Of a stretch of DNA of 64,000 bases, positions 20,077 through 42,603 are shown piece by piece (position 1 is the first letter of the stretch; each line of letters starts with the position of its first letter). The position numbers and the translations under genes were made by a program. The notes beneath the pieces are model-generated. The model was not told where the DNA came from and did not search any database. It saw only the letters and a program-made list of their open reading frames with translations. Where the stretch lies: NCBI GenBank assembly GCA_934182615.1, contig CAKPRO010000009.1, positions 5,282 through 69,281 on the forward strand, given 5' to 3'. This stretch comes from an uncultured Bacilli bacterium. GTDB lineage: Bacteria > Bacillota_I > Bacilli_A > RF39 > UBA660.

Positions 20077-20122
20077 AGTCTCGTCAACTCTGAATTTTAG
20101 TTACCTATATTAAATTTTTATG

Positions 20123-21775
20123 TCACACTAAACTAATAAACCCTACTTTATCACTACTGTAATCATCATCTAAATCAGCACCAGCATATACAATACCAAC
20201 AACTTCTCTTTTTTTATTTAAAACCGGGCCACCACTCATTCCATGTTTTGGAGAATCTTTAGTTACCCAAAATTCTCTTCCAAGAAAAGTATCTTTACCA
20301 ATTATTTTGGTTTCTATAATTGAAATACTCGTCCTATCAAAGTCTACAAAGCCCGGATAACCAACTAAATATACAGTATCTCCCATCATAGGTTTATTTT
20401 TTGAAATGTTAAAAAACTTACTATTAAAATTAATATTTTTGATACATAAAATATCGGTCTTATAATTATTTTCCTCTATTTTATAATTCAAAAAAAGTTT
20501 ACTCGTTTTATTTTTTAAATAAAAGAAAGGTAAATTTCCATCATCAGGTATAATAGGAAACTGTCTTAAATATTGAGTGTCATTTTCATCATAAATAAAA
20601 TCTTTAATGGTAGTTTTATTTATTAAAACATGAGTTGAAGTATGCAATATATTATTTTTTATCAGAAATGCTGTACCTTGAGAATCTTCAGCTTCTGACT
20701 GTAAAACAAAACATCTATCTTCTGTATACTTTTGAATTTCCAATATACTATCAACATCAAACAGTTCAACGCTAAATAGCTCGTTAAATTCTTTAGCATA
20801 TTTTAAAAACATCTTATCATTATAACCTCTTACCATTTTTAAATAATTTAATTTTCCTTGTAGCAAATTAAACATTTTATATTTTGCATCCTTTTCAGTG
20901 TCAAATTTAAAATTTTTAAAATTCTTTTGAGCTGTTATTATAAAGCCATATTTTTTTATGGAATAAAGCATTGCGCGAACTTCTTTTATATATTTTTTAT
21001 TTAAATTTAATTTAGTATTTACTATTACACCTGTTACCTCTTGACGTAACATTTTTTTTGAAAGTTTAGTTTTTGCATTATTTACTTTAAATCCTGTATT
21101 ATAACCACCATTAATTATTTTGATTAATCTATCAGATAAAACTATTTCACTGGATTGTTTATATGCTATTTGTAAAGGAAATTTATCACTATTTGTAGAT
21201 ATTGTTATATCATCAGCATATCTACTATAAATACATCTATTTTTTTTTGATAAATGTTCTAATTCTTTATCCATTTGATAACATATAATATTAGATATTA
21301 TCGGTGATGTTGGGGCTCCTTGAGGCAATTTACCATCTTTACAAACTATTTTTGCAAGAAAAGTAGCTAAATGCCTATTGAAATTAAAAGGTTTACCCAT
21401 AAACATTCCACGAACTCTACCAAAATGTATTGTATCAAAAAAATTTTCTAAATCAATATTTAATACAAATCTTTTTCCTACATGTTGACTTGCATTAGTT
21501 ACACAACTTCTGTTTTTTATAAAACCATGTTGAACATCTAAAAAATCATAACAATCATATAATAATGTTGCTAATCTTTGTTGTATTACTTTTAATTCAA
21601 TTGTAGGCGCAGAAATTTTTCTTATACCGCCATTTTTTTTAGGAATTTCAAAGCTTATATAATTTTCTTCTTTTACAAATAAAATATAATTTAAATATCC
21701 TTTAGATATATTTAAAATGCTACATAAATCATCAACGCTATCAATCTCTAAAAATATATAATTTTTATGCAACAT
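20123..21775 (-). CDS. Retron-type reverse transcriptase fused to a C-terminal trypsin-like serine protease
   Basis: RT motifs: NASQH (NAxxH), QGAPTSP, RYADDITIS, EVTGVIVN (VTG). C-terminal H/D/S triad candidates: TSTHVL, TDILCIK, GMSGGPV. Start set at the ATG 6 nt after SD gaggtg. Confidence 0.8.
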   Translation of the reverse strand: MLHKNYIFLEIDSVDDLCSILNISKGYLNYILFVKEENYISFEIPKKNGGIRKISAPTIELKVIQQRLATLLYDCYDFLDVQHGFIKNRSCVTNASQHVGKRFVLNIDLENFFDTIHFGRVRGMFMGKPFNFNRHLATFLAKIVCKDGKLPQGAPTSPIISNIICYQMDKELEHLSKKNRCIYSRYADDITISTNSDKFPLQIAYKQSSEIVLSDRLIKIINGGYNTGFKVNNAKTKLSKKMLRQEVTGVIVNTKLNLNKKYIKEVRAMLYSIKKYGFIITAQKNFKNFKFDTEKDAKYKMFNLLQGKLNYLKMVRGYNDKMFLKYAKEFNELFSVELFDVDSILEIQKYTEDRCFVLQSEAEDSQGTAFLIKNNILHTSTHVLINKTTIKDFIYDENDTQYLRQFPIIPDDGNLPFFYLKNKTSKLFLNYKIEENNYKTDILCIKNINFNSKFFNISKNKPMMGDTVYLVGYPGFVDFDRTSISIIETKIIGKDTFLGREFWVTKDSPKHGMSGGPVLNKKREVVGIVYAGADLDDDYSSDKVGFISLV

Positions 21776-21789
21776 ATTCATCACCTCAG

Positions 21790-21937
21790 TGTAAAAAGGA
21801 CTCATACATTGTACTATTATATTAAATAATAAATAGTATAAGGTATATTAAACGAAATAATTAATTTATAATACCTAAATGTAACTAACATTTTTTTAAC
21901 CATGGCGAAACACTCATGAGGTGCAGTCCTTTTTACA
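21790..21937 (-). ncRNA. Candidate retron msr-msd
   Basis: 13-bp perfect inverted repeat, tgtaaaaaggact (21790-21802) / agtcctttttaca (21925-21937). It brackets ~120 nt with several hairpins, and a G follows the 5' arm on the RNA strand. The 3' arm ends 15 nt before the RT start. Confidence 0.45.
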
Positions 21938-22216
21938 AGATAATATATTAACATAGATTTAGGTCTTTTACAAGCTTTTGCCTACTCTTCCATAAGAATT
22001 TCTAATTTATAATTAATTTTCAATTATTATATTCTTGTCAGTTATTTCTTCATGAACTTTAATATCAACATTATACTTCCTATTGATACCTCTATTTCAT
22101 CTGCAGTAATATTAAGCACAAGTTCTTCACTTAATAACTTAATATCATTTGCCTCATTTTTCCAAATTTCTCTTAAATTTATTATTTTTTCTAACCTTCC
22201 TAAACTATAATCCTTT

Positions 22217-23266
22217 TTAATCCTTCAAAAATTCTAAATATCTGCTATATTGATCAACTAGTATATTTTTTATGTATTGTTCCATATATTCATAATCAGG
22301 ATTATTGTTTTTATCTACTGGTAACAAAATTTTTTCTTTACTAATTCTAAAATCATTTATTTCTCTATTAAAACTATATTTATTTCCTATTCTTGAAACT
22401 ATGGCTGTTAAAAATAAATAAATATACTTATTATACTTATTATTTTTTAGTGCTGTAATATGATCACTACCAATAAAATCATATTGATGATAAAAGGTGG
22501 CCCCAACTGAACCACTATTAGCGATAGTTAAACAATTATTAAATTTTTTTCCTTCTTTGTTACTAATAAAATTATCTACACCATTATTCATCATTGTTGA
22601 GGAAATGTACGGAATGTTTCCTGCTTTATGATTGCTCTTTTTTAATCTTTTTCCTCTTTCAATAATTGAAAATATACAATTAATATCAAATTCTTTCCAT
22701 TGTTTTTCTGATAATTCAAGGATTTGTTTATATTCAATATTTGATATACTTTTATTACAATATTTTTTCACCAAATCTAATTTATCGTCTAATATTTCAG
22801 CTATACTATTTTCCATGTATTGATAATTTACTGTTTCATCGTCATTTATGGGAAGAATAATTTTCAATTTAGACAAATCCTTACTTGATAACTGATTTCC
22901 ATATGAAAAATTATCTGTATTTGCCATAATTATAACTTTAAAATATTCAGCTAAGTTTTTATTTAAGGTATGTTCTTTTAATATTAATGCATGAACTTTC
23001 ATATCCAATGAAGCCTTATACGGATGATAAAAAACGCTACCCAAAAATGAAACACTTATAAAATTTTCATAAACTCTAAAATTAGGGTTACTTGACTCGC
23101 AATATGAATCAATACCATTATTTGTATCTCTAACTGTTATTCTAGGAATTGATCCTGGCTTTAATTCAGACTTATTTATATAAGCACCTGTTGGTACTTG
23201 ATTTTCAGTTGTTTCAAAAATATCACTTATTCTAAATATTTTCCATTTGATACCATTATCATTCAT
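22217..23266 (-). CDS. Restriction-modification specificity subunit (HsdS/BcgIB-like, two target-recognition domains)
   Basis: Two similar halves, each ending in a conserved helical spacer. Overlaps the upstream methylase gene by 8 nt. Confidence 0.8.
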   Translation of the reverse strand: MNDNGIKWKIFRISDIFETTENQVPTGAYINKSELKPGSIPRITVRDTNNGIDSYCESSNPNFRVYENFISVSFLGSVFYHPYKASLDMKVHALILKEHTLNKNLAEYFKVIIMANTDNFSYGNQLSSKDLSKLKIILPINDDETVNYQYMENSIAEILDDKLDLVKKYCNKSISNIEYKQILELSEKQWKEFDINCIFSIIERGKRLKKSNHKAGNIPYISSTMMNNGVDNFISNKEGKKFNNCLTIANSGSVGATFYHQYDFIGSDHITALKNNKYNKYIYLFLTAIVSRIGNKYSFNREINDFRISKEKILLPVDKNNNPDYEYMEQYIKNILVDQYSRYLEFLKD

Positions 23267-25172
23267 TCTTATCACCTTCGGTCTCAAATAAATATCCTCT
23301 TCCGTGAGTAATCATATTAATTTCAAATGTTAAATAATCAGCTATAGCGTTTTCAAAACAATCATTATTGGGAATTTCATCATTGAAATAAAAGTAAGAA
23401 TGTAACCATTCATCTTCCGCTTCAACAGTCGTTTCTACACAAAATTTAGTTGGAGCTTCTATTTTATCAAACCATACATCCAACAAATGTTGCTTTCTAT
23501 CCTTTGCACGTTCAGTTTCGACAAGCCCTTTGTGTTTTTGAACTTCAAATCCATCGTCTGAAAAATCAATGAATTTACATAATTTGTTTCTATCATGTGG
23601 TATACCTGCGGTAAAAATTGCAATACAAGGATTTGTTCCAACTCCATAAAAAGTATTTGTGTTTAGAGTAATTACTCCCTCTAAAGTGTGATGTAATAAT
23701 ATACTTTCTTTTATATTTTGTTCATTCTTATTTTTACCCGTCATTGTACTTTGAGGTACAATGACAATAACCTTACCGCCAACTACGATGCTGTCTAATA
23801 AATGTTCAACAAAGCTAAGTTCACATTTTTCAGGGCTTATTTTTCCCATTGAGTATGGGGGATTCATCATGCCTACTGTTGCACCCTTTAATTGTACTTT
23901 GCTAGAATCCTGTGCTAAAAAATCATCACATATTAGATTACTTTTCCCATCGCCACGCAAAATCATATTTGTAGTTGCAATAGTAAACATATATGGTTGA
24001 AGTTCAAAGCCATGTAGTTGGTTCCTTTTAATTGCCATCTTTTCCTGATTATTAGATGTTTTTCCAAGCATGTCGTGCATAGCTGAAACAAGGAATCCAG
24101 CCGTTCCACAGCATGGATCCAACACCACATCTGTAGATTTCAACTCTATTAAATCGCAAAATAAATTGCATATATGTTTTGGTGTTAAAACAATTCCCAA
24201 TGATTGCCCATCTCCACCAGAATAACTCATAAATTCTCCATAAAATCTACCCAAATAGTCTTCTGATGTCTGATTATATCTAATAGTTTTATATAGCTTG
24301 TTATATAAATATTCAGTATAAAATTTTAATGGGGTTTTACCTAAAATATCGTTTTTTTCATTCAAAATGACAGTGTCTTTTATTATAGCAAATTGTGATA
24401 AAAGTTTATCTTTCTTTGTTTCTGGAGATACTTGTGATCGATCTAAATTATCTCGTATTGCATTATAAATTTTCAAACCATCTGTTTTTAATTTGTCACC
24501 AATTAAATCGTCAATAGAGAAATTCTTATGTTCTATTTCTTTTAAAGCCAATAATATTCCACTTACAACCAAAGGCTTGTCTTTATCGCTTAAATTACCA
24601 TAATTTCTTAAATATTCATGCAATTCTTTTGCATCTTTTAGTATTTCTTCAGTCGTCTTTTCATCATCTGTGTTTTCCTTTAAAATTTCTCTAACATAAT
24701 ATTCATCAATATTATTCTCATTAAAAGAAATAAAACTTTCTACTTCCGGTAAATCTATAAAATATTCTCTACCATCTAAATATATTGGCTTTATGACGTG
24801 ATGTTTTTCATCTCCGCTAATTCCAAATGCAATAGCTTTTTTGTAATTAGTGTTTTCTAATATGTGATTTGCATAAAAATATGCCCCATTTAAGGCATAA
24901 TCAGTTATTGATGATACGCTTAAATTTAAAATACCATTTTCATCATATTTTGCTTGTTTATCTGTGGAATACTTGTCTTCAATTACTAAAACAAAATCTT
25001 TTACAACCCCTACATATTCTGGAAATCCCACATTACCTGTGCCTTTTTTTGATGCAGTTTTTAATGCATAATCTAATTCTTTAATATTGCTTCCTTGTGC
25101 ATCTAATGTTATTCCAGCATCTTTTAATAAATCATAAACCCACAAATCAGTTCTAACTTCTTTTTTTGCCAT
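23259..25172 (-). CDS. Fused PD-(D/E)xK-like nuclease plus gamma-class N6-adenine methyltransferase (BcgIA-like, type IIB candidate)
   Basis: N-terminus GFPEYVGVVKDFVLVIEDK (E...ExK), AdoMet motif VLDPCCGTAGFL, catalytic MMNPPY. There is no HsdR-like helicase gene anywhere in the window. Confidence 0.7.
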   Translation of the reverse strand: MAKKEVRTDLWVYDLLKDAGITLDAQGSNIKELDYALKTASKKGTGNVGFPEYVGVVKDFVLVIEDKYSTDKQAKYDENGILNLSVSSITDYALNGAYFYANHILENTNYKKAIAFGISGDEKHHVIKPIYLDGREYFIDLPEVESFISFNENNIDEYYVREILKENTDDEKTTEEILKDAKELHEYLRNYGNLSDKDKPLVVSGILLALKEIEHKNFSIDDLIGDKLKTDGLKIYNAIRDNLDRSQVSPETKKDKLLSQFAIIKDTVILNEKNDILGKTPLKFYTEYLYNKLYKTIRYNQTSEDYLGRFYGEFMSYSGGDGQSLGIVLTPKHICNLFCDLIELKSTDVVLDPCCGTAGFLVSAMHDMLGKTSNNQEKMAIKRNQLHGFELQPYMFTIATTNMILRGDGKSNLICDDFLAQDSSKVQLKGATVGMMNPPYSMGKISPEKCELSFVEHLLDSIVVGGKVIVIVPQSTMTGKNKNEQNIKESILLHHTLEGVITLNTNTFYGVGTNPCIAIFTAGIPHDRNKLCKFIDFSDDGFEVQKHKGLVETERAKDRKQHLLDVWFDKIEAPTKFCVETTVEAEDEWLHSYFYFNDEIPNNDCFENAIADYLTFEINMITHGRGYLFETEGDKNE

Positions 25173-25362
25173 AATACATATTCTCCTTCATAATTTTTTC
25201 TTCTATAGCCTCTAATACAAATTTATTAAAGCTATAATTTTTTCTTCCATTTTTCTTTTTTATTTTTTGAACATAATCTGAAATCTGAAAAAACAAATTC
25301 TTATCTAATCTTAATAAATAAGTTTCCTTTTTTTCATTCTCATTAAGATCTTGTTTTTTCAT
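25153..25362 (-). CDS. Small ribbon-helix-helix-like protein (possible controller of the RM operon)
   Basis: YLLRLDKNLFFQISDYV...SFNKFVLEAIEEKI looks like strand-helix-helix. Overlaps the methylase start by 20 nt. Confidence 0.4.
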   Translation of the reverse strand: MKKQDLNENEKKETYLLRLDKNLFFQISDYVQKIKKKNGRKNYSFNKFVLEAIEEKIMKENMYYGKKRS

Positions 25363-26170: not shown

Positions 26171-26713
26171 TTATTTATGTTTTCTTTTATACAAGTATAC
26201 TCCTCCTGATATTACTCCTATACCTAAGATTGTGTTTAATAAACTATTACTATCCTTTTCATCTTCAATATTATTATCTTCAATATTTTTACTAGTGGAT
26301 ATAATGCAACTTCCATCATCAACCTCTGCTTCTGGATCATAGTTGTCTGCTGATGGATTTTTACATCCTAGTACATAATATTCACAGGTTCCGTCATCTT
26401 TATTTGCTGATGAATTATAGTTCTTTGCTGTTTCATCTGTGCATCCATATGTATAATAGATACAACTTCCATCATCTCTATTAGCACTAGAATTATAATT
26501 ACTTGCATTTTTGTCTGTGCACCCATAAATATAGGTAACTGTTGGTGTACATGTACAACTAGGACTTAAAGTACCATCATTACAAACCAATCTTCCAGAA
26601 CTACTACAGCCACTAACACCACCATGATGAGAACAACACCCTCTCGTTGCACTAACTTTTAATGGCATTAATAGTATAATGCACACTAAAATTACTATTA
26701 TTTTTTTCTTCAT
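26171..26713 (-). CDS. Secreted or membrane-anchored Cys-rich repeat protein
   Basis: Signal peptide, GCCSHHGGVSGC motif, 3x GC(T/K)D..A.NY(N/D)..A..DDG(S/T)C repeats, and a C-terminal TM segment plus KRKHK. Confidence 0.7.
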   Translation of the reverse strand: MKKKIIVILVCIILLMPLKVSATRGCCSHHGGVSGCSSSGRLVCNDGTLSPSCTCTPTVTYIYGCTDKNASNYNSSANRDDGSCIYYTYGCTDETAKNYNSSANKDDGTCEYYVLGCKNPSADNYDPEAEVDDGSCIISTSKNIEDNNIEDEKDSNSLLNTILGIGVISGGVYLYKRKHK

Positions 26714-26875: not shown

Positions 26876-27145
26876 TTATAGTTCATTAATTCCAGTAACT
26901 ATTTTGTTAACGACTTCAACTATACTATCATATACGACTTTTGAAATTTTATCATTAGAGCTATCAAAATCGGTAGACTTATTTATTTTAATAATATCAC
27001 CTTTTTTAAATTCCTTAAACAAAGCCTCATATAGTTTTTTACCATCCACATTTAGCGTACTTTTAGGAATTTCAAATATCTCCACATTTTCGCTTTTAAT
27101 AATATATTTGTCATTGTTATTATACATCGTATATATTTTTGTCAT
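26876..27145 (-). CDS. Small protein (89 aa) translationally overlapping the PHP-ATPase gene
   Basis: SD aaaggtgg before the ATG at 27145. Overlaps the upstream stop by 26 nt. No motif recognised. Confidence 0.5.
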   Translation of the reverse strand: MTKIYTMYNNNDKYIIKSENVEIFEIPKSTLNVDGKKLYEALFKEFKKGDIIKINKSTDFDSSNDKISKVVYDSIVEVVNKIVTGINEL

Positions 27146-29522
27146 ATCTTTTCCACCTTTCATTAATTGAAGCTATTCCACCTTCTATGTTATCGGCAAC
27201 AATTTTCAAAACATTACATTCTTCATCTTTATATTCAAGTGCACCATTTTGAATATATATTTTATCTTTTTCATCTTTACCCAAGAATATTACATTATCA
27301 ACATCTAAATTTACGATAAATTGTGGATTATGCGTTATCATAATAATTTGTCTATTCTTGCTCATATCATTAAAATCATTTAAAATATTTTTCTTTATGG
27401 ATGGTTGTGACACGTCATCTTCAGGTTGATCAATTATATATATTCTCTTATCATCAGTTTGGTTAGATATTAAATCAAAATAGATTCTAGAATTTAAACC
27501 TGATGATAATTCTTTTGTTACATCTTTATCTTTATCTTTGTTCCATTCATTTATTGCATTCTCAACAGAAAAAATATCGTTTATTTTATTATCTAATTCA
27601 TTTTTTAGATTTAATAACTTGTTATCGTAAGAAATTTCTTTACTTCTATTATTAAATTTATCTGGAATTGTATTTGGATCAATTGAATTTATATCTTTTA
27701 TACTTTTTCCTAATATTTCTTTAATTAAGTATATTAAATGATCATTTGATATTTCTTTTACCTTAGTTTTTGCGACGAATCTGTATTTTCCAACTATATT
27801 AAAGGATGTTGGTATTTTTTCTTCTTTGATATTTGGCTTATATTTAGTTTCTTTCCTACTCTTAATATAATAATTTATGATGTTTTCCGAAAAAATCTCC
27901 TTATTATTTTCATAATTTGATATTTTTTCTGTTTCATCCGTTTCTATTCTTTTTAGTTCTTTACCTTTTTTAGTGAACTCAGTATTGATTATATTGATTT
28001 TAGATATTTCAAGCAAATTTTGTTTATTTATATCGTTATATTTTGATATTAAAATTTTATAGTGGTCAACGCTATTTTTAATATACTCTTTATCTCCCTT
28101 CTCAAAGCAGTCATTATTCATTACTTCCAATAGCAATGAATTGATTGATTCAAGTTTTTCAATTATTTTATTTACTTCTTTTATTTTCAAATTAATATTG
28201 TTAATAATAGTATTAGTTATATTTTTAAAGCTTAGTGACTTTGAGTTTGAATCAATGATACATATACTAAAATCTATTATCTTATTGAATGCACTGGTTT
28301 TCTCTTCTTTATTTTTTAAAACTGAAATATAACTTTCAATTTCAGATTTATATTTTTTAATATATTTATTTACTGAAGGGGCAACAGGAAAAAAACTATT
28401 CAAGAAATTATCACTATTAAAGTTTTTATTTTCAAACATCTTTCTTATAGAGCCTTGTCCATTAAATTCAGAAATATTTGATTTTGGTATATGTGAATTG
28501 ATTTTTATATTTTTCTCATTCAAATACTCCTCATAACTATTTTTTATTTTATTATCATTTAAATAATTATAATCAGTTAACTTGTGAATTAATAGCGACT
28601 TTCCTATGGAATTATCACCTATAATAACATTGATTCCTTTAGAAAGTTTTATATTATGTTTATTTCCATTTATTTCTATATCTATACTATCCAAATATTT
28701 ATCTGTAACAGGGAAAAAGTTATTAACATAATTTATTCTTTTAGTGTTTGTCATAGCCATGGCTAAACCACGAAAGGTTGGTAAACATTTTAAATATGTA
28801 AATGAAAAATCATCGTTTTCCTCGGGATAATCGGCCCAAATATGGCAATCAGAACCTGTTATAAACTTCAATGTAATATCTTTATATTTTTCCCTGTTTC
28901 TTTCAATATAGTTTTTATTAAATATTTCGTTTATCTTTTTTTTAAATTCAAAGGCCTCAAAAAAATCCAAAAAGACCAATTCATCAAATTTTTCCTTTCC
29001 TAAACTCATGACATCATGATTTCTCGGCTCCTTGCTAGATAGGGTTGCTTTTTGATGGGCTATCATCACTACATTTAAATTAATTTCTTTTAAAATATCA
29101 AGATATTTACTTTCAGAAAATGAATTTAATTTGTTATTATCATACAATGGTTTTCCTTTATTTTTATCAAATATTTTACTTTGTATTTTACTTATTGCTT
29201 CTTCATCTGAATCATCAAATATTGTAATAACATGCAAAACTTTTTTATCATATGCCACCGAAAATTCAACTGCAGGAAAAACCTTTTTAATACTTCCTTT
29301 ATTCTCTTCATTCTTTAATCTTTTATATATATCAAAATCAAAGTTATCATGATCTGATATAGAGCACATATTTATTTTTCTTTCATTTAATTTTTCTATT
29401 AATAAATTTATGTTATCTATTGTCGATAAATCTACACGATCATCACTTTCTTTATGTTTTGACGCAAAAGAATGAATATGAAAATCCACTTTATTGCCTG
29501 TTTCAACTATCTTTTCAATCAT
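27120..29522 (-). CDS. PHP-domain phosphoesterase fused to an ABC/OLD-type ATPase (Ppl-like defence candidate)
   Basis: N-terminus DFHIHSFAS...SISDHDNF...AVEF (PHP). Walker A IIGDNSIGKS, Walker B IYIIDQPEDDVSQ, and IMITHNPQF. Confidence 0.65.
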   Translation of the reverse strand: MIEKIVETGNKVDFHIHSFASKHKESDDRVDLSTIDNINLLIEKLNERKINMCSISDHDNFDFDIYKRLKNEENKGSIKKVFPAVEFSVAYDKKVLHVITIFDDSDEEAISKIQSKIFDKNKGKPLYDNNKLNSFSESKYLDILKEINLNVVMIAHQKATLSSKEPRNHDVMSLGKEKFDELVFLDFFEAFEFKKKINEIFNKNYIERNREKYKDITLKFITGSDCHIWADYPEENDDFSFTYLKCLPTFRGLAMAMTNTKRINYVNNFFPVTDKYLDSIDIEINGNKHNIKLSKGINVIIGDNSIGKSLLIHKLTDYNYLNDNKIKNSYEEYLNEKNIKINSHIPKSNISEFNGQGSIRKMFENKNFNSDNFLNSFFPVAPSVNKYIKKYKSEIESYISVLKNKEEKTSAFNKIIDFSICIIDSNSKSLSFKNITNTIINNINLKIKEVNKIIEKLESINSLLLEVMNNDCFEKGDKEYIKNSVDHYKILISKYNDINKQNLLEISKINIINTEFTKKGKELKRIETDETEKISNYENNKEIFSENIINYYIKSRKETKYKPNIKEEKIPTSFNIVGKYRFVAKTKVKEISNDHLIYLIKEILGKSIKDINSIDPNTIPDKFNNRSKEISYDNKLLNLKNELDNKINDIFSVENAINEWNKDKDKDVTKELSSGLNSRIYFDLISNQTDDKRIYIIDQPEDDVSQPSIKKNILNDFNDMSKNRQIIMITHNPQFIVNLDVDNVIFLGKDEKDKIYIQNGALEYKDEECNVLKIVADNIEGGIASINERWKRYDKNIYDV

Positions 29523-33590: not shown

Positions 33591-33839
33591 AAATATCCCT
33601 CCATTTATAATATATTATAGTTTTTTACTTTTGTCAATTGTTTTTACACTATAAGCCATTTGTCTTGCTAGTGTTATTTGGAGTCTTGGGTCTCCAAATA
33701 AGTATTAATTATACTTATTATATATAAGTATGAAATATATACTTAAAGTAGTTTATTATTGGTATTTTTTTTGTTATTTTGAGTATAATAATAATGCAAT
33801 ATACTTGACTTTTTATAATAGTTATAGTATCATTGTATT

Positions 33840-33954
33840 ACCGGAGAGAAATCTCGTCAGGTCGATAGCTCAATGTCGATTTTATTAAATTAAGTGTATG
33901 TTAAGTACACCGCTTGAGTTGGGGAGAGACTACTAGATAGTCTCTTTTCTTTTT
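33840..33954 (+). ncRNA. Candidate ~110-nt small RNA convergent with the DUF3800 gene
   Basis: TTGACT-17 nt-TATCAT (33805-33833), then agagacta/tagtctct hairpin plus tttcttttt (33925-33954). No plus-strand ORF downstream. Confidence 0.25.
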
Positions 33955-34681
33955 ATGGAAATAATAGTTTATGATCGATAATATCAATATCAGAATCAAT
34001 ATTTGATAATGCTCTTCTTCTGGTAGTGCCTGCTATTAAATCTGCTGCTTGCACTAAGTAACTCTTACCTGAATCTTGATATGTTAATCTTATTTCTAAT
34101 TTTCCATATAATATATTTTTATATTTTATATCATAATTAAAATTAGATATTCCATGTAGTAATTCTTCAGTTAGGCCATCTTTTAAATTATAATAACCAT
34201 TACTTTTTGTAGATTGTTCATCTATATTTATTATTAATCTCACATTTTTATGTGGGTTTATTTTTTTATCTTTTATTAATTCTTCTATGGTACTTTTAAT
34301 TAGTCTTCTTATTGTGTAATCTATGTATCTTCCTTTTGATGCTTTATTATTTATAATATGATTATATACTTTTGTATTATTTATTACTAGGGCAATAGTA
34401 TAATATTTACTTATGTAGTTCATAAGTCTTCTTTTATGACCTTTCTTGATATTTGTATTTTTTATTTCTTTACATTTTTTAGTACATTCTCCTTTTGTTT
34501 GTCCGCAGTAGGAACATTTTATCTCATTTATTATTTGGCGATACTGAGTTATAAATTTATCTTTTTCTTGTTTTGATAAAAAGACTATTCCTGCATATAC
34601 TGATACTTTTTCTTTTTTTGTTAATTTACCTGAATCATCTAAATTTATATATATTTCTTGATATTCTTCTTTTTTGTTCAT
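33953..34681 (-). CDS. DUF3800-family protein
   Basis: N-terminal IYINLDDSGKL and C-terminal LVQAADLIAG match the DUF3800 signature as I recall it. Start after SD gaagggag. Confidence 0.65.
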   Translation of the reverse strand: MNKKEEYQEIYINLDDSGKLTKKEKVSVYAGIVFLSKQEKDKFITQYRQIINEIKCSYCGQTKGECTKKCKEIKNTNIKKGHKRRLMNYISKYYTIALVINNTKVYNHIINNKASKGRYIDYTIRRLIKSTIEELIKDKKINPHKNVRLIINIDEQSTKSNGYYNLKDGLTEELLHGISNFNYDIKYKNILYGKLEIRLTYQDSGKSYLVQAADLIAGTTRRRALSNIDSDIDIIDHKLLFP

Positions 34682-34830
34682 ATAAGTGCTCCCTTCAATT
34701 GTTTTAATGTTTATTATAGCATGTACTTTTAATATTGTCATTAGGTTTTAAGTAATTTTGTTTATCAACAATATATGTGGATATAAGAAAAACTATAGAC
34801 ATAAATCTATAGCTTATATAAATACTTTTA

Positions 34831-39630: not shown

Positions 39631-39736
39631 AGTTTCTCCTTTGCTACTTTATTTAATTATATCATATTTTGTCGTATTTGTTTGTAAAAAAATGATATTT
39701 TTATTTTTAATGGGAAAATTATATTAGGTGTTAGAT

Positions 39737-40174
39737 ATGAATTTTCAAAAACTAATAGAATTAAGAGAAGACTTTAATCTTAAACAAAAGGATATTGCTA
39801 AGCTATTAAACATTACTCAGCAGACTTATTCACTATGGGAAAATGGCAGTAAAATTATTCCTTTAAAGCATTTGAATTCTTTATGTAACTATTATAATGT
39901 TAGTATGGATTATATGCTGGGGCTTTCTAATAAGAATAGTTTTAATAATGGTAAATATAATATTGATAAAAAGATTATTGGTAGGAGATTAAAAGAATTT
40001 AGAAAAGAAAAAAATATTACCCAAGAAGAACTAGCTAGTACTCTTAATACTACTCATTCAACGATTAGTGCTTATGAAAGTGGTAAAACTACTATTCTTA
40101 CAGCTTTTGCTTATGAGATATGTAAAAGATATAACATTTCTATGGACTATTTATGTGGTAGAATACTTATTTGA
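39737..40174 (+). CDS. XRE-family regulator with two HTH_3 domains
   Basis: LKQKDIAKLLNITQQTYSLWENG and ITQEELASTLNTTHSTISAYESG. Confidence 0.85.
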   Translation: MNFQKLIELREDFNLKQKDIAKLLNITQQTYSLWENGSKIIPLKHLNSLCNYYNVSMDYMLGLSNKNSFNNGKYNIDKKIIGRRLKEFRKEKNITQEELASTLNTTHSTISAYESGKTTILTAFAYEICKRYNISMDYLCGRILI

Positions 40175-40830: not shown

Positions 40831-42603
40831 GTGAAGAAGAATATGTTGGGGAGAATTATTGCTATTAATGATAATATTGTTTCAGTACAATTATCTGTTA
40901 ATATTTATGATTATGATAGTTTAATTAGTAAGAATGTTATATTTAAAGATACTTCTGCGATTAGTATTGGGGAAGTTATTGCTATTGGTAATGGTATTAT
41001 GCAGGTATCTTTAGTGGGAGAAATTAGAAATAATAAGTTTTTATTTGGAGATATTTCTAAGCCTTCTTTTAAGGCTACTTGTAATTTGATTGATAATAGT
41101 GTTCTTGATATTATTTTAAATAATGATGGACCTAATAGTATTAAACTTGGTAAGTCTTTTATTTATCCTGATTACGATATTAAACTTGATGTTGGTAATT
41201 TCTTTTCTAATCATTTTGCTATACTAGGTAATTCTGGTAGTGGTAAATCTTACTCTGTTGCTAAGATTCTTCAGAGTGTCTTCTACCAATGTAAGAGTTT
41301 ACCTTTCTATTCTAATATATTCTTATTTGATGCTTATGGAGAGTATCAAAGAGCTTTTTCTAGGATACATGAAGTTAATGATAATATTAATTATAAGGTA
41401 TATACTACTGATTTAAATAGTACTGAATTTGATATTTTACAATATCCTTTTTGGTTACTTGGTATTGATGATTTGGCTTTACTTATGGGTGTTACTTCTA
41501 AAGAGCAATTACCAGTTATTGAGAAGGCTTTAAAATTAGTTAGTTATTTTGCTAGAAAAGAAGAAGAAGTTATTAATCAGAAGAATGATATTATTGCTAG
41601 ATGTTTATTAGATATTTTATTTTCTGGTAAGAGTGCTAGTATGATTAGAAATAAGATTGTTTCTATTCTTACTAAATTTAATACTAGTAATCTTAACTTA
41701 GAAGTTAAACTTGTTAAGGGTGGATGGACTAGAACTATTAGACAATGTTTATTCGTAGAGAATACTGGTGAGTTTTCGGATGTTGAGGTTGTTATTGAAT
41801 ACTTAGAAAGTTTATGTTTGGATAATTTTGAGCTTTCTCTTCCTAATGGGGAATATATGTATACTATGAAAGACTTTAGTACGGCTTTGGAGTTTGCTCT
41901 TATATCTGAGGGTACTCTAAATAGTGATAAGGCTTTTGAACTTACTAATATTCTTAAAGTTAGATTTAATAATTTAATGAATAGTAATTATGCTAGATAC
42001 TTTGAATATGATGGTTATATTAATAGAGAGAGTTTTATTAATTTACTTCTTACTACTAATGATGGTAAGAAAGCACAGATTGTTAATTTTAATATTAATT
42101 ATGTTGATGATAGATTTGCTAAGAATTTGGTTAAAATATTTTCTAAACTTTTATTTGATTATATTGTATCTCTTAATCAGAGAGCTTCAATGCCATTTCA
42201 TATTGTTCTTGAAGAGGCTCATAGATATGTTCAGAATGATGAAGATGCCACTATACTTGGATATAATATTTTTGAAAGAATTACTAAGGAAGGTAGAAAA
42301 TATGGATTACTTCTTGGTATTGTTTCTCAAAGACCTTCTGAGCTTTCTGAAACTACAATATCACAGTGTAGTAACTTCTTAGTATTTAAGATGTTTCATC
42401 CTAGGGATTTACAATTTATTAAGGATATTATTTCTAGTGCAGATATTACTTTGACTAATAAGATTAAGACTTTACATCCTGGTACTTGTATTATGTTTGG
42501 TACGGCTTTTAAGATGCCTACGATTGCTATTCTTGATAAACCTAATCCTGAACCTCTTAGTCAGAGTTGTGATATTAATAAGACTTGGTATATTCATAAT
42601 TAG
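40831..42603 (+). CDS. HerA/FtsK-like (DUF87) ATPase with an N-terminal HAS-barrel-like segment
   Basis: GRIIAINDNIVSVQL...IGEVIAIGNGIMQVSL, Walker A GNSGSGKS, Walker B HIVLEEAHRY, and GIVSQRPSEL. Confidence 0.75.
   Translation: MKKNMLGRIIAINDNIVSVQLSVNIYDYDSLISKNVIFKDTSAISIGEVIAIGNGIMQVSLVGEIRNNKFLFGDISKPSFKATCNLIDNSVLDIILNNDGPNSIKLGKSFIYPDYDIKLDVGNFFSNHFAILGNSGSGKSYSVAKILQSVFYQCKSLPFYSNIFLFDAYGEYQRAFSRIHEVNDNINYKVYTTDLNSTEFDILQYPFWLLGIDDLALLMGVTSKEQLPVIEKALKLVSYFARKEEEVINQKNDIIARCLLDILFSGKSASMIRNKIVSILTKFNTSNLNLEVKLVKGGWTRTIRQCLFVENTGEFSDVEVVIEYLESLCLDNFELSLPNGEYMYTMKDFSTALEFALISEGTLNSDKAFELTNILKVRFNNLMNSNYARYFEYDGYINRESFINLLLTTNDGKKAQIVNFNINYVDDRFAKNLVKIFSKLLFDYIVSLNQRASMPFHIVLEEAHRYVQNDEDATILGYNIFERITKEGRKYGLLLGIVSQRPSELSETTISQCSNFLVFKMFHPRDLQFIKDIISSADITLTNKIKTLHPGTCIMFGTAFKMPTIAILDKPNPEPLSQSCDINKTWYIHN

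Follow-up and report, generated by a model that had tools for sequence, protein, structure and literature searches.

A predicted type XI retron with a fused trypsin-like protease and a covarying upstream non-coding RNA in an uncultured Bacilli bacterium

The 64,000-nucleotide stretch of DNA analyzed here (the window; contig CAKPRO010000009.1 of assembly GCA_934182615.1, from an uncultured Bacilli bacterium) carries on its minus strand a gene at 20123-21775 in which a reverse transcriptase (RT) forms a fusion with a trypsin-like serine protease. Our analysis indicates that this gene and the structured non-coding RNA (ncRNA) encoded directly upstream of it very probably represent a type XI retron. 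The ncRNA was missed by an earlier reading of the window (the sequence-only reading) and is the third defining part of the retron. With about 1.9 kb, an msr-msd region of about 150 nt and one gene, the locus is very probably a complete, intact and canonical member of its type, whose mechanism can be approached by analogy with Retron-Eco2. As in other retrons, the NAxxH, YADD and VTG motifs are present, the RT groups with retron RTs, and a contiguous ncRNA is bounded by the inverted repeats a1 and a2 and contains the G expected for priming. As in type XI, an RVT_1 domain is fused to a Trypsin_2 domain, the protein matches the RT-Protease_XI profile over its full length, and the unit has no separate effector gene, because homology ends at the edges of the cassette and the neighboring genes differ between loci. 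The cassette and its protein-coding features are as follows.

20096..22007, minus strand: whole cassette (promoter, ncRNA and RT-protease gene), the block common to relatives in other genomic contexts
20123..21775, minus strand: RT-protease coding sequence, from ATG 21775 to TGA 20125-20123; 550 aa, beginning MLHKN; full-length AlphaFold2 model with pLDDT 89 and pTM 0.71
21023..21646, minus strand: RVT_1 RT core (Pfam RVT_1, 1.4e-26), with NASQH at 21496-21482, YADD at 21220-21209 and VTG at 21037-21029
20126..20743, minus strand: trypsin-like (S1, HtrA/DegS-like) serine protease domain, residues 345-550 (Pfam Trypsin_2, 8.3e-08)
20632-20630, 20455-20453 and 20236-20234, minus strand: codons of the triad residues His382, Asp441 and Ser514, within TSTHVL, TDILCIK and GMSGGPV

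The RT half is placed among retron RTs by profile and structure comparisons. Profile matches to Pfam and PADLOC models are numbered on a 560-aa open reading frame (ORF), a longer reading of the same gene. The best PADLOC model is RT-Protease_XI, which is matched from end to end (E 7.4e-157, 521 bits). Two RT-Protease_XI profiles lead the list, followed by RT-TIR_XII (407 bits) and RT-Toprim_I-C (373 bits), both of which describe other fusions in retron RT clade 8, and all of the top 25 matches are retron RT models. No NCBIfam model reaches its cut-off for the protein: retron_Ec67_fus scores 350 bits against a cut-off of 450, Retron_TIR 347 against 600, the group II intron RT model TIGR04416 77 against 300, and Drt2 35 against 390. 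The public names of relatives are uninformative for this reason, being either 'reverse transcriptase domain-containing protein' or 'trypsin-like peptidase domain-containing protein', with no hint of a retron. When the family profile is compared with the PDB, the best match is retron Ec67/Eco2 (E 3e-96, residues 7-280, about 35% identity), and further top matches by sequence or fold are retrons Ec86, Kva2, Ec78 and Ec83. In addition, the top Foldseek matches of the full-length AlphaFold2 model are cryo-EM structures of Eco2.

In the 550-aa numbering, NASQH lies at residues 94-98, YADD at 186-189, and VTG at 247-249 within EVTGVIVN (246-253). In an alignment of 38 homologous sequences with 36-92% identity, N94, A95, H98, Y186, D188, D189, T248 and G249 are invariant, and so are the triad residues H382, D441 and S514. 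Judged from this alignment, chance is no explanation for such invariance.

These results also bear on whether the RT derives from another lineage (a group II intron maturase, the RT of a diversity-generating retroelement (DGR), or an Abi/UG defense RT) and merely carries a protease domain, a reading to which we give practically no weight. RVT_1 is common to all prokaryotic RTs, and the weak TIGR04416 and Drt2 matches could be taken to favor such an origin, but both lie far under their cut-offs. Against it also stand the uniformly retron character of the top 25 PADLOC matches, the invariance of NAxxH and VTG, and the finding that retron structures match best by both fold and sequence. The three candidate lineages were rejected individually as well. 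For a group II intron RT, besides the low TIGR04416 score, Rfam finds no group II intron RNA in the window. For a DGR, no repeats of the template/variable-repeat (TR/VR) type occur near the gene in the 17-27 kb part of the window; the repeats found there are just three, short, AT-rich and 71-74% identical, and are attributable to chance. For an Abi/UG RT, that is, a defense-associated RT (DRT), no DRT model appears in the PADLOC top 25, and Drt2 stays at its score of 35 bits against 390.

The C-terminal part of about 200 aa is a serine protease domain. The family profile for residues 345-540 matches the Spl, HtrA and DegS proteases in the PDB with E values of 1e-12 to 1e-9. The C-terminal 206 residues modeled alone with AlphaFold2 gave a pLDDT of 90.5 and a pTM of 0.89, and this model matches DegS, Mycobacterium tuberculosis HtrA and Rv3671c/MarP with a probability of 1.00 and TM scores of 0.6-0.68. 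As modeled, the domain is a chymotrypsin double β-barrel with His, Asp and Ser in the canonical order, and it is predicted to be catalytic. The 38-sequence alignment further reveals an insertion of about 40 aa between the His and the Asp, which is specific to the subfamily. The sequence-only reading had pointed to NASQH, EVTGVIVN and YADD and had proposed a retron-class RT joined to a complete trypsin-like protease. All three motifs are present with invariant motif residues, the profile searches assign the RT to retrons and not to group II introns, Abi systems or DGRs, and structure prediction returned a peptidase fold around the ordered triad of the Trypsin_2 domain, so that both halves of that proposal hold.

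The protease domain resembles HtrA/DegS/MarP (S1C) and the staphylococcal Spl proteases (S1B) in its double-barrel fold, in the order His-Asp-Ser and in the GxSGGP motif that surrounds the serine. However, identity to these proteins is just 14-18%, and the RT-protease has neither a PDZ domain nor a signal peptide, while its protease N-terminus is tethered to the RT. Since it lacks a signal peptide, the protein is expected to be cytoplasmic. When the protease domain alone was searched against 1.84 billion representative proteins, 179 matches were obtained at E <= 1e-3, the best of which are nearly all C-terminal domains of proteins of about 550 aa. Unlike the free HtrA, DegS and Spl proteases, the nearest relatives of this domain are thus other RT fusions. 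Because its closest relatives nearly all occupy this C-terminal position, the protease is, as far as the homology search can tell, a dedicated module evolving together with the RT, and not a recently captured housekeeping HtrA.

Directly upstream of the gene lies the ncRNA, which is delimited by folding, by covariation and by a covariance model built from it and its relatives (R1). Its parts and the predicted promoter in front of it are the following.

21790..21937, minus strand: retron ncRNA (msr-msd), beginning with the first a1 base and ending with the last a2 base
21925..21937, minus strand: a1 arm, TGTAAAAAGGACT; forms a perfect 13-bp inverted repeat with a2, in which 10/13 pairs have compensatory double changes (14 loci)
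21790..21802, minus strand: a2 arm, AGTCCTTTTTACA; perfect inverted complement of a1, ending 14 nt before the start codon
21924, minus strand: candidate branching (priming) G, directly 3' of a1; T16, G17 and C18 (TGC) are invariant in 14/14 aligned ncRNAs
21901..21918, minus strand: msr hairpin 1, CAUG-A-GUG/UUU/CGC-CAUG, 7 bp and one bulge; 99% of alignment cells paired, 3/7 pairs compensatory
21879..21891, minus strand: msr hairpin 2, AUGU/UAGUU/ACAU, less conserved; 82% of cells paired, 2/4 pairs with double changes
21803..21878, minus strand: predicted msd template, AT-rich and variable in sequence; 1-2 hairpins in every one of 14 relatives
21968..21973, minus strand: -35-like hexamer TTGTAA, read from the sequence; position and TTGnnn conserved in relatives; putative
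21945..21953, minus strand: extended -10 element TGtTAATAT; TGnTAnTAT at a fixed distance from a1 in 9/10 relatives; putative

The region 21780-21950 (171 nt) folds with a minimum free energy (MFE) of -41.5 kcal/mol and a z-score of -4.7, and the a1/a2 stem closes the structure. In retrons, the branching guanosine sits right after a1, and G21924, which occupies this position, is the candidate for that role. Hairpin 1 has the consensus CAUG-A-GYG/UUU/CGC-CAUG across the relatives, and its outer stem swaps from CAUG/CAUG to CGUA/UACG, CAUU/AAUG or CGUU/AACG. The msd region contains a conserved ACAATGT block and ends at its 3' side with the conserved ACAAUGUAUG, which abuts a2. If copying starts from the base 5' of a2, the predicted multicopy single-stranded DNA (msDNA) would be about 70 nt long and start with 5'-CATACATTGT.

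The same architecture recurs in every relative that was fetched (44-92% protein identity), with an inverted repeat that spans about 140-155 nt and lies 12-20 nt from the start codon. The arms themselves differ in sequence among the relatives (GTAAAAAGGATT, TGAAAAAGAATT, GTAAGAAGAATT, AAGGAAGAATT, AAGAAGAGAACT, TAAGGGATTT and TAGTAAGAGAAA). For the covariation analysis of 14 loci, the invariant TGC and the conserved block preceding a2 served as anchors for aligning the 5' and 3' parts. Standard pairs fill 92.3% of the cells, compared with 43-53% when the partners are slid by 1-3 columns. Double changes occur in 15 of the 24 pairs, a level reached by 0/500 shuffles. A wider set of 39 RT-protease loci also takes in relatives from other phyla with 30-36% identity. 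Of these 39 loci, 16 (41%) have a perfect repeat in this geometry that is 10 nt or longer; the frequency is 0.8% in dinucleotide shuffles and 2.6% when the controls are anchored within the gene.

Model R1, built from the 14 sequences, has a sole significant match in the 64-kb window, at 21940..21787 (143 bits, E 1.5e-22). The searches were run with filters off; the default filters lost the ncRNA of the window and most of the training sequences, probably owing to their AT-rich composition. R1 also finds ncRNAs outside its training set at three further loci (75 bits in L003, 53 bits in L009 and 37 bits in L001), each directly upstream of its RT and on the same strand. Rfam 15 contains no family matching the ncRNA region, even at E values up to 10. 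The msr-hairpin pattern CATGWGYGTYTCGYCATG was also tried as a probe of metagenome and viral collections and was rejected, being too short for such collections, where chance matches dominate: among the matches listed, 121/122 loci have no RT nearby, and just one (L180, a 92% relative) is real.

The two putative promoter elements would set the transcription start at about 21940-21936, the first bases of a1, where an msr would be expected to begin. This placement matters for a different view of the upstream element, namely that it is a 5' leader regulating expression of the RT-protease, which might for example mask the ribosome-binding site, and that the protein acts without msDNA. Two observations speak for such a leader. 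In the MFE folds of the window, as in several relatives, the a1/a2 stem extends by 7 bp in which AUUAUCU (21944-21938) pairs with AGGUGAU (21787-21781), the Shine-Dalgarno sequence, and type VI retrons were reported without abundant msDNA (10.1101/2025.10.22.683967). The Shine-Dalgarno side of this extension is conserved for its own reasons. However, judged from the conserved extended -10 element, transcription probably starts past AUUAUCU, at a1, which would leave this segment out of the RNA, so occlusion of the Shine-Dalgarno sequence was not adopted. Moreover, the element has every retron hallmark (a1/a2, the junction G, msr hairpins and a variable msd), other type XI retrons make RT-DNA from similarly predicted ncRNAs, and YADD and all other RT motifs are strictly conserved. 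A purely regulatory leader is therefore very unlikely, and the retron ncRNA is by far the better description of the element.

The ncRNA is also helpful in fixing the start of the gene. The mechanical ORF list begins at ATG 21805, which gives the 560-aa reading. This start falls within the msd/a2 part of the ncRNA, and the first ten codons of the longer reading overlap the a2 arm. In contrast, ATG 21775 is preceded by a well-placed Shine-Dalgarno sequence.

21782..21787, minus strand: Shine-Dalgarno sequence GAGGTG, read from the sequence, 6 nt before ATG 21775; AGGTGAT invariant in relatives

Close homologs are 549-551 aa long and have their N-terminus at the MLH/MLQ position. Because of these homolog starts, the Shine-Dalgarno spacing and the position of the longer start inside the ncRNA, we take ATG 21775 as the start and 550 aa as the length of the protein. 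The limits 20123-21775 given for the gene by the sequence-only reading agree with all three lines of evidence. A database cluster (P0001) has the 560-aa form, as would result from gene callers choosing ATG 21805 (the additional 21776-21805, minus strand). Public protein records of the subfamily thus probably carry 10 spurious N-terminal residues, and the practical point for annotation is that gene callers push the ORF 10 codons into the a2 arm. The nearest protein cluster to the RT-protease is 92% identical to it. The lineage of the locus is divergent and very AT-rich (about 25% GC), and probably belongs to uncultured Bacilli of the gut, with 90% nucleotide identity to L025.

Type XI retrons were defined in 2020 as RTs of clade 8 fused to a trypsin-like protease, and were described at that time as 'lacking recognizable ncRNA modules', with a guess that the protease cleaves 'targeting peptides' (Mestre 2020, PMC7736814). 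A later census includes clade 8, type XI, among its validated ncRNAs and reports RT-DNA from some members; the type XI members tested include Mestre-1163, from an uncultured Ruminococcus sp. (Khan 2024, 10.1101/2024.01.25.577267). A 2026 survey gave no covariance model for canonical type XI and predicted ncRNAs just for protease-less type XI-like lineages. The locus resembles the known type XI retrons in its full-length match to the profile of the type and in an ncRNA directly upstream with an a1/a2 repeat. Compared with them, a covariation-supported ncRNA consensus is now available for one AT-rich subfamily, to which no Rfam family corresponds. Our literature search found no structural or mechanistic study of an RT-protease retron, in agreement with the remark in the sequence-only reading that such fusions have been listed (as type XI in PMC7736814) and little studied.

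Two other retron types help to place the fusion. Retron-Eco2 (Ec67), a type I-C1 RT-Toprim retron (PDB 9i2f, 9lm3, 9s1f), has the closest solved structure by both sequence and fold. It belongs to the same RT clade and has the same organization of one protein plus an ncRNA, with the effector fused C-terminally to the RT. The effector is a Toprim nuclease in Eco2 and a serine protease here, which implies proteins rather than tRNAs as targets. Type XII (RT-TIR), the second-best PADLOC family, likewise combines a clade-8 RT with a fused C-terminal effector, whereas its similarity to the present protein is limited to the RT part (residues 12-401) and its effector domain is unrelated.

In Eco2, a trimer assembled on the branched msDNA as scaffold cages the fused Toprim nuclease, and when the phage nuclease DenB degrades the msDNA, the freed nuclease cuts tRNAs (PMC12916289). 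Transferred to the locus, this suggests the following sequence of events. The RT would bind the msr hairpins and, with the 2'-OH of G21924 (at the a1/a2 junction) as primer, copy the msd into an msDNA of about 70 nt, which would remain protein-bound. The resulting msDNA nucleoprotein complex would keep the fused protease inactive. A phage factor would then free the protease by degrading, modifying or sequestering the msDNA, and the protease would cut one or more host (or phage) proteins, so that growth stops before phage release (abortive infection). By analogy with Eco2, we regard caging of the protease by msDNA and its release by phage as a tentative proposal, somewhat less probable than even. 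Two features fit a conformational switch, each as a weak argument. The proteases whose fold is most similar, HtrA and DegS, are allosterically regulated, and the N-terminus of the protease domain is tethered. Because of this tether, a trypsinogen-like activation by a free N-terminus is ruled out.

Several points weigh against this picture of the locus. The caging model is borrowed from a Toprim nuclease fusion whose RT is about 35% identical; trimerization, msDNA caging and a DenB-type trigger are known for Eco2 alone (PMC12916289) and are carried over here by analogy, and the protease domain has no counterpart in the Eco2 structure. A literature search yielded no phage-challenge study of any type XI retron. 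On the RNA side, the anchors of the covariation alignment were picked with the repeat known, which favors pairing, and this bias is offset just in part by the slid-partner control and by the covariance-model matches outside the training set. In addition, the promoter elements are below the threshold of a generic consensus promoter scan.

The limits of the cassette are defined by its relatives in other genomic contexts. In blastn comparisons with L090, L091 and L092, 92.5% identity extends over exactly 22007..20096. Similarity to these 92% relatives thus stops 27 nt past the stop codon on one side and about 70 nt ahead of a1 on the other. Comparisons with L081, L082, L084, L086 and L087 give similarity that begins at 21953-22003 and stops at 20096-20130. 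In more distant relatives, the similar stretch starts 10-60 nt upstream of a1, and its other end lies no more than about 30 nt from the stop codon. The genes beside the cassette vary from locus to locus. Because nucleotide similarity stops at its edges, the predicted promoter, the ncRNA and the gene together are, by these comparisons, a discrete, modular and mobile unit of 1.9 kb without a second gene. Among the matches listed in a scan of genome contigs, most are distant relatives (30-47% identity).

The one-gene cassette also bears on the main rival to direct killing by the protease. In this alternative, the locus is a type XI retron as well, yet its protease cuts a latent pro-effector encoded elsewhere at a specific site and thereby activates it, or, in a variant, processes the fusion protein itself. 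Modules of a protease and a latent effector are widespread in defense, some of them fused to retron or DRT sensors, and trypsin-like proteases are elsewhere paired with pro-nucleases or with hydrolases of the metallo-β-lactamase (MBL) fold (PMC12799240, PMC12642450). HtrA/DegS-like proteases, which the domain matches in fold, are moreover typically regulated and site-selective. On the other hand, the conserved cassette is a single gene whose similarity ends shortly after the stop codon, and the flanking genes differ between loci, so no co-inherited substrate gene is visible. We therefore consider activation of a pro-effector unlikely, and prefer the proposal that the released protease itself acts on host or phage proteins.

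The surroundings of related cassettes point to mobility. In L081, L086 and L090, a large serine recombinase (Resolvase, Recombinase and Zn_ribbon_recom domains) precedes the cassette, which follows about 160-200 nt further downstream.

L081 1551-3209, L086 1178-2815 and L090 1180-2838: location of this arrangement in the three relatives

This arrangement suggests that an integrative element or a prophage carries the cassette along as its terminal cargo, and copies are found on prophage-like contigs and on a few plasmids. In the window, no such serine recombinase flanks the cassette. A LysM gene lies next to the RT in L081, L082, L084 and L086; the gene beside the RT in L090 has no Pfam match and is linked to LysM through blastn similarity alone. 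The similarity of relatives to the window at 2.2-3.3 kb stems from LysM repeat domains. The LysM gene was rejected as a functional partner, as its position varies and the cassette of the window is without it.

The genomic context indicates that the locus is probably an anti-phage system. Among the relatives, the cassette adjoins restriction-modification (RM) genes in L087, L296, L297 and L298 and SLFN/NERD-type genes in L088 and L089, and GmrSD genes also flank relatives. In the window, an RM system is located immediately upstream of the retron.

22217-25172, minus strand: BcgI-like RM system, a 637-aa fused restriction endonuclease-methyltransferase (REase-MTase) and a 356-aa specificity subunit, overlapping by 29 nt

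The two genes match the PADLOC models REase_MTase_IIG (6.2e-172, 637-position model) and Specificity_II (8.7e-51, 341 positions). A type I identity of this system is ruled out by the type IIG REase-MTase and the type II specificity subunit, which make it BcgI-like. The sequence-only reading had described the gene as standing in a defense island next to an RM system. The adjacent RM system is borne out by these two matches, and the term defense island is reasonable in view of the RM, TrlF/Ppl-like ATPase, DUF3800 and HerA-like genes of the window. On the other side, downstream, the cassette is followed by a BceRS/BceAB-like sensor-transporter module, and a VanZ-like gene is found there too.

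Further genes of the window were noted in passing. Just upstream of the RM system, a 69-aa ORF (25153-25362) might, from its sequence alone, encode a controller protein. The gene at 26171-26713 (minus strand) has no Pfam match; its 180-aa product resembles a signal peptide at the N-terminus, has a hydrophobic anchor at the C-terminus and contains three Cys repeats of the form GCTD..A.NYN..AN.DDG.C.Y. Also among the upstream neighbors, 27120-29522 (minus strand) encodes an 800-aa protein that combines a PHP-like motif (DFHIHS) at its N-terminus with an ABC/AAA ATPase at its C-terminus. Its matches to the TrlF-family ATPase (1.3e-37, with 130 bits where the cut-off is 350), to Ppl and to GajA are weak and below threshold, and it may be a single-gene defense candidate. 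An Rfam DUF3800-I RNA at 33833-33957 (plus strand) scores 65.6 bits against a gathering threshold of 44.2. It abuts the 3' end of a DUF3800 gene that is encoded on the opposite strand (33953-34741, minus strand), with no RT gene next to them. In type VII retrons, DUF3800 serves as the effector, and L089 has a homolog of this DUF3800 gene (68% nucleotide identity) 2.5 kb from its RT-protease. Finally, an XRE/RstR-like regulator (39728-40174, plus strand) is followed by a HerA-like helicase (40831-42603, plus strand), which matches 'anti-phage-associated helicase HerA' at 4e-49, below the cut-off; the pair may be another defense module of the window.

New in this analysis are an ncRNA supported by covariation for an AT-rich Firmicutes subfamily, the delimitation of the cassette and the corrected gene start. 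The R1 covariance model could help to annotate type XI retrons in AT-rich Firmicutes. Finding a type XI retron would not surprise a specialist, yet the locus offers a clean entry into an unstudied effector class. Retrons with nuclease, nucleoside deoxyribosyltransferase (NDT), TIR-like and membrane effectors have structures and known triggers, whereas the protease-fused type XI has none. The locus is a compact and well-delimited entry point to this type, with one gene, 1.9 kb of DNA, a named candidate branching G and triad, and natural compensatory variants. At the more speculative end, and in our estimate rather improbable as a whole, type XI may be the first retron with proteolysis as its output, in which the msDNA complex masks an HtrA-like active site and loss or alteration of the msDNA during infection unleashes proteolytic cleavage. 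If true, there would be a conserved host protein target, such as a translation factor, and type XI retrons would represent a cytoplasmic protease switch gated by a nucleic acid. The fast-evolving protease domain, which occurs almost exclusively in RT fusions, and its insertion of about 40 aa between His and Asp would then set the specificity for the target or the trigger.

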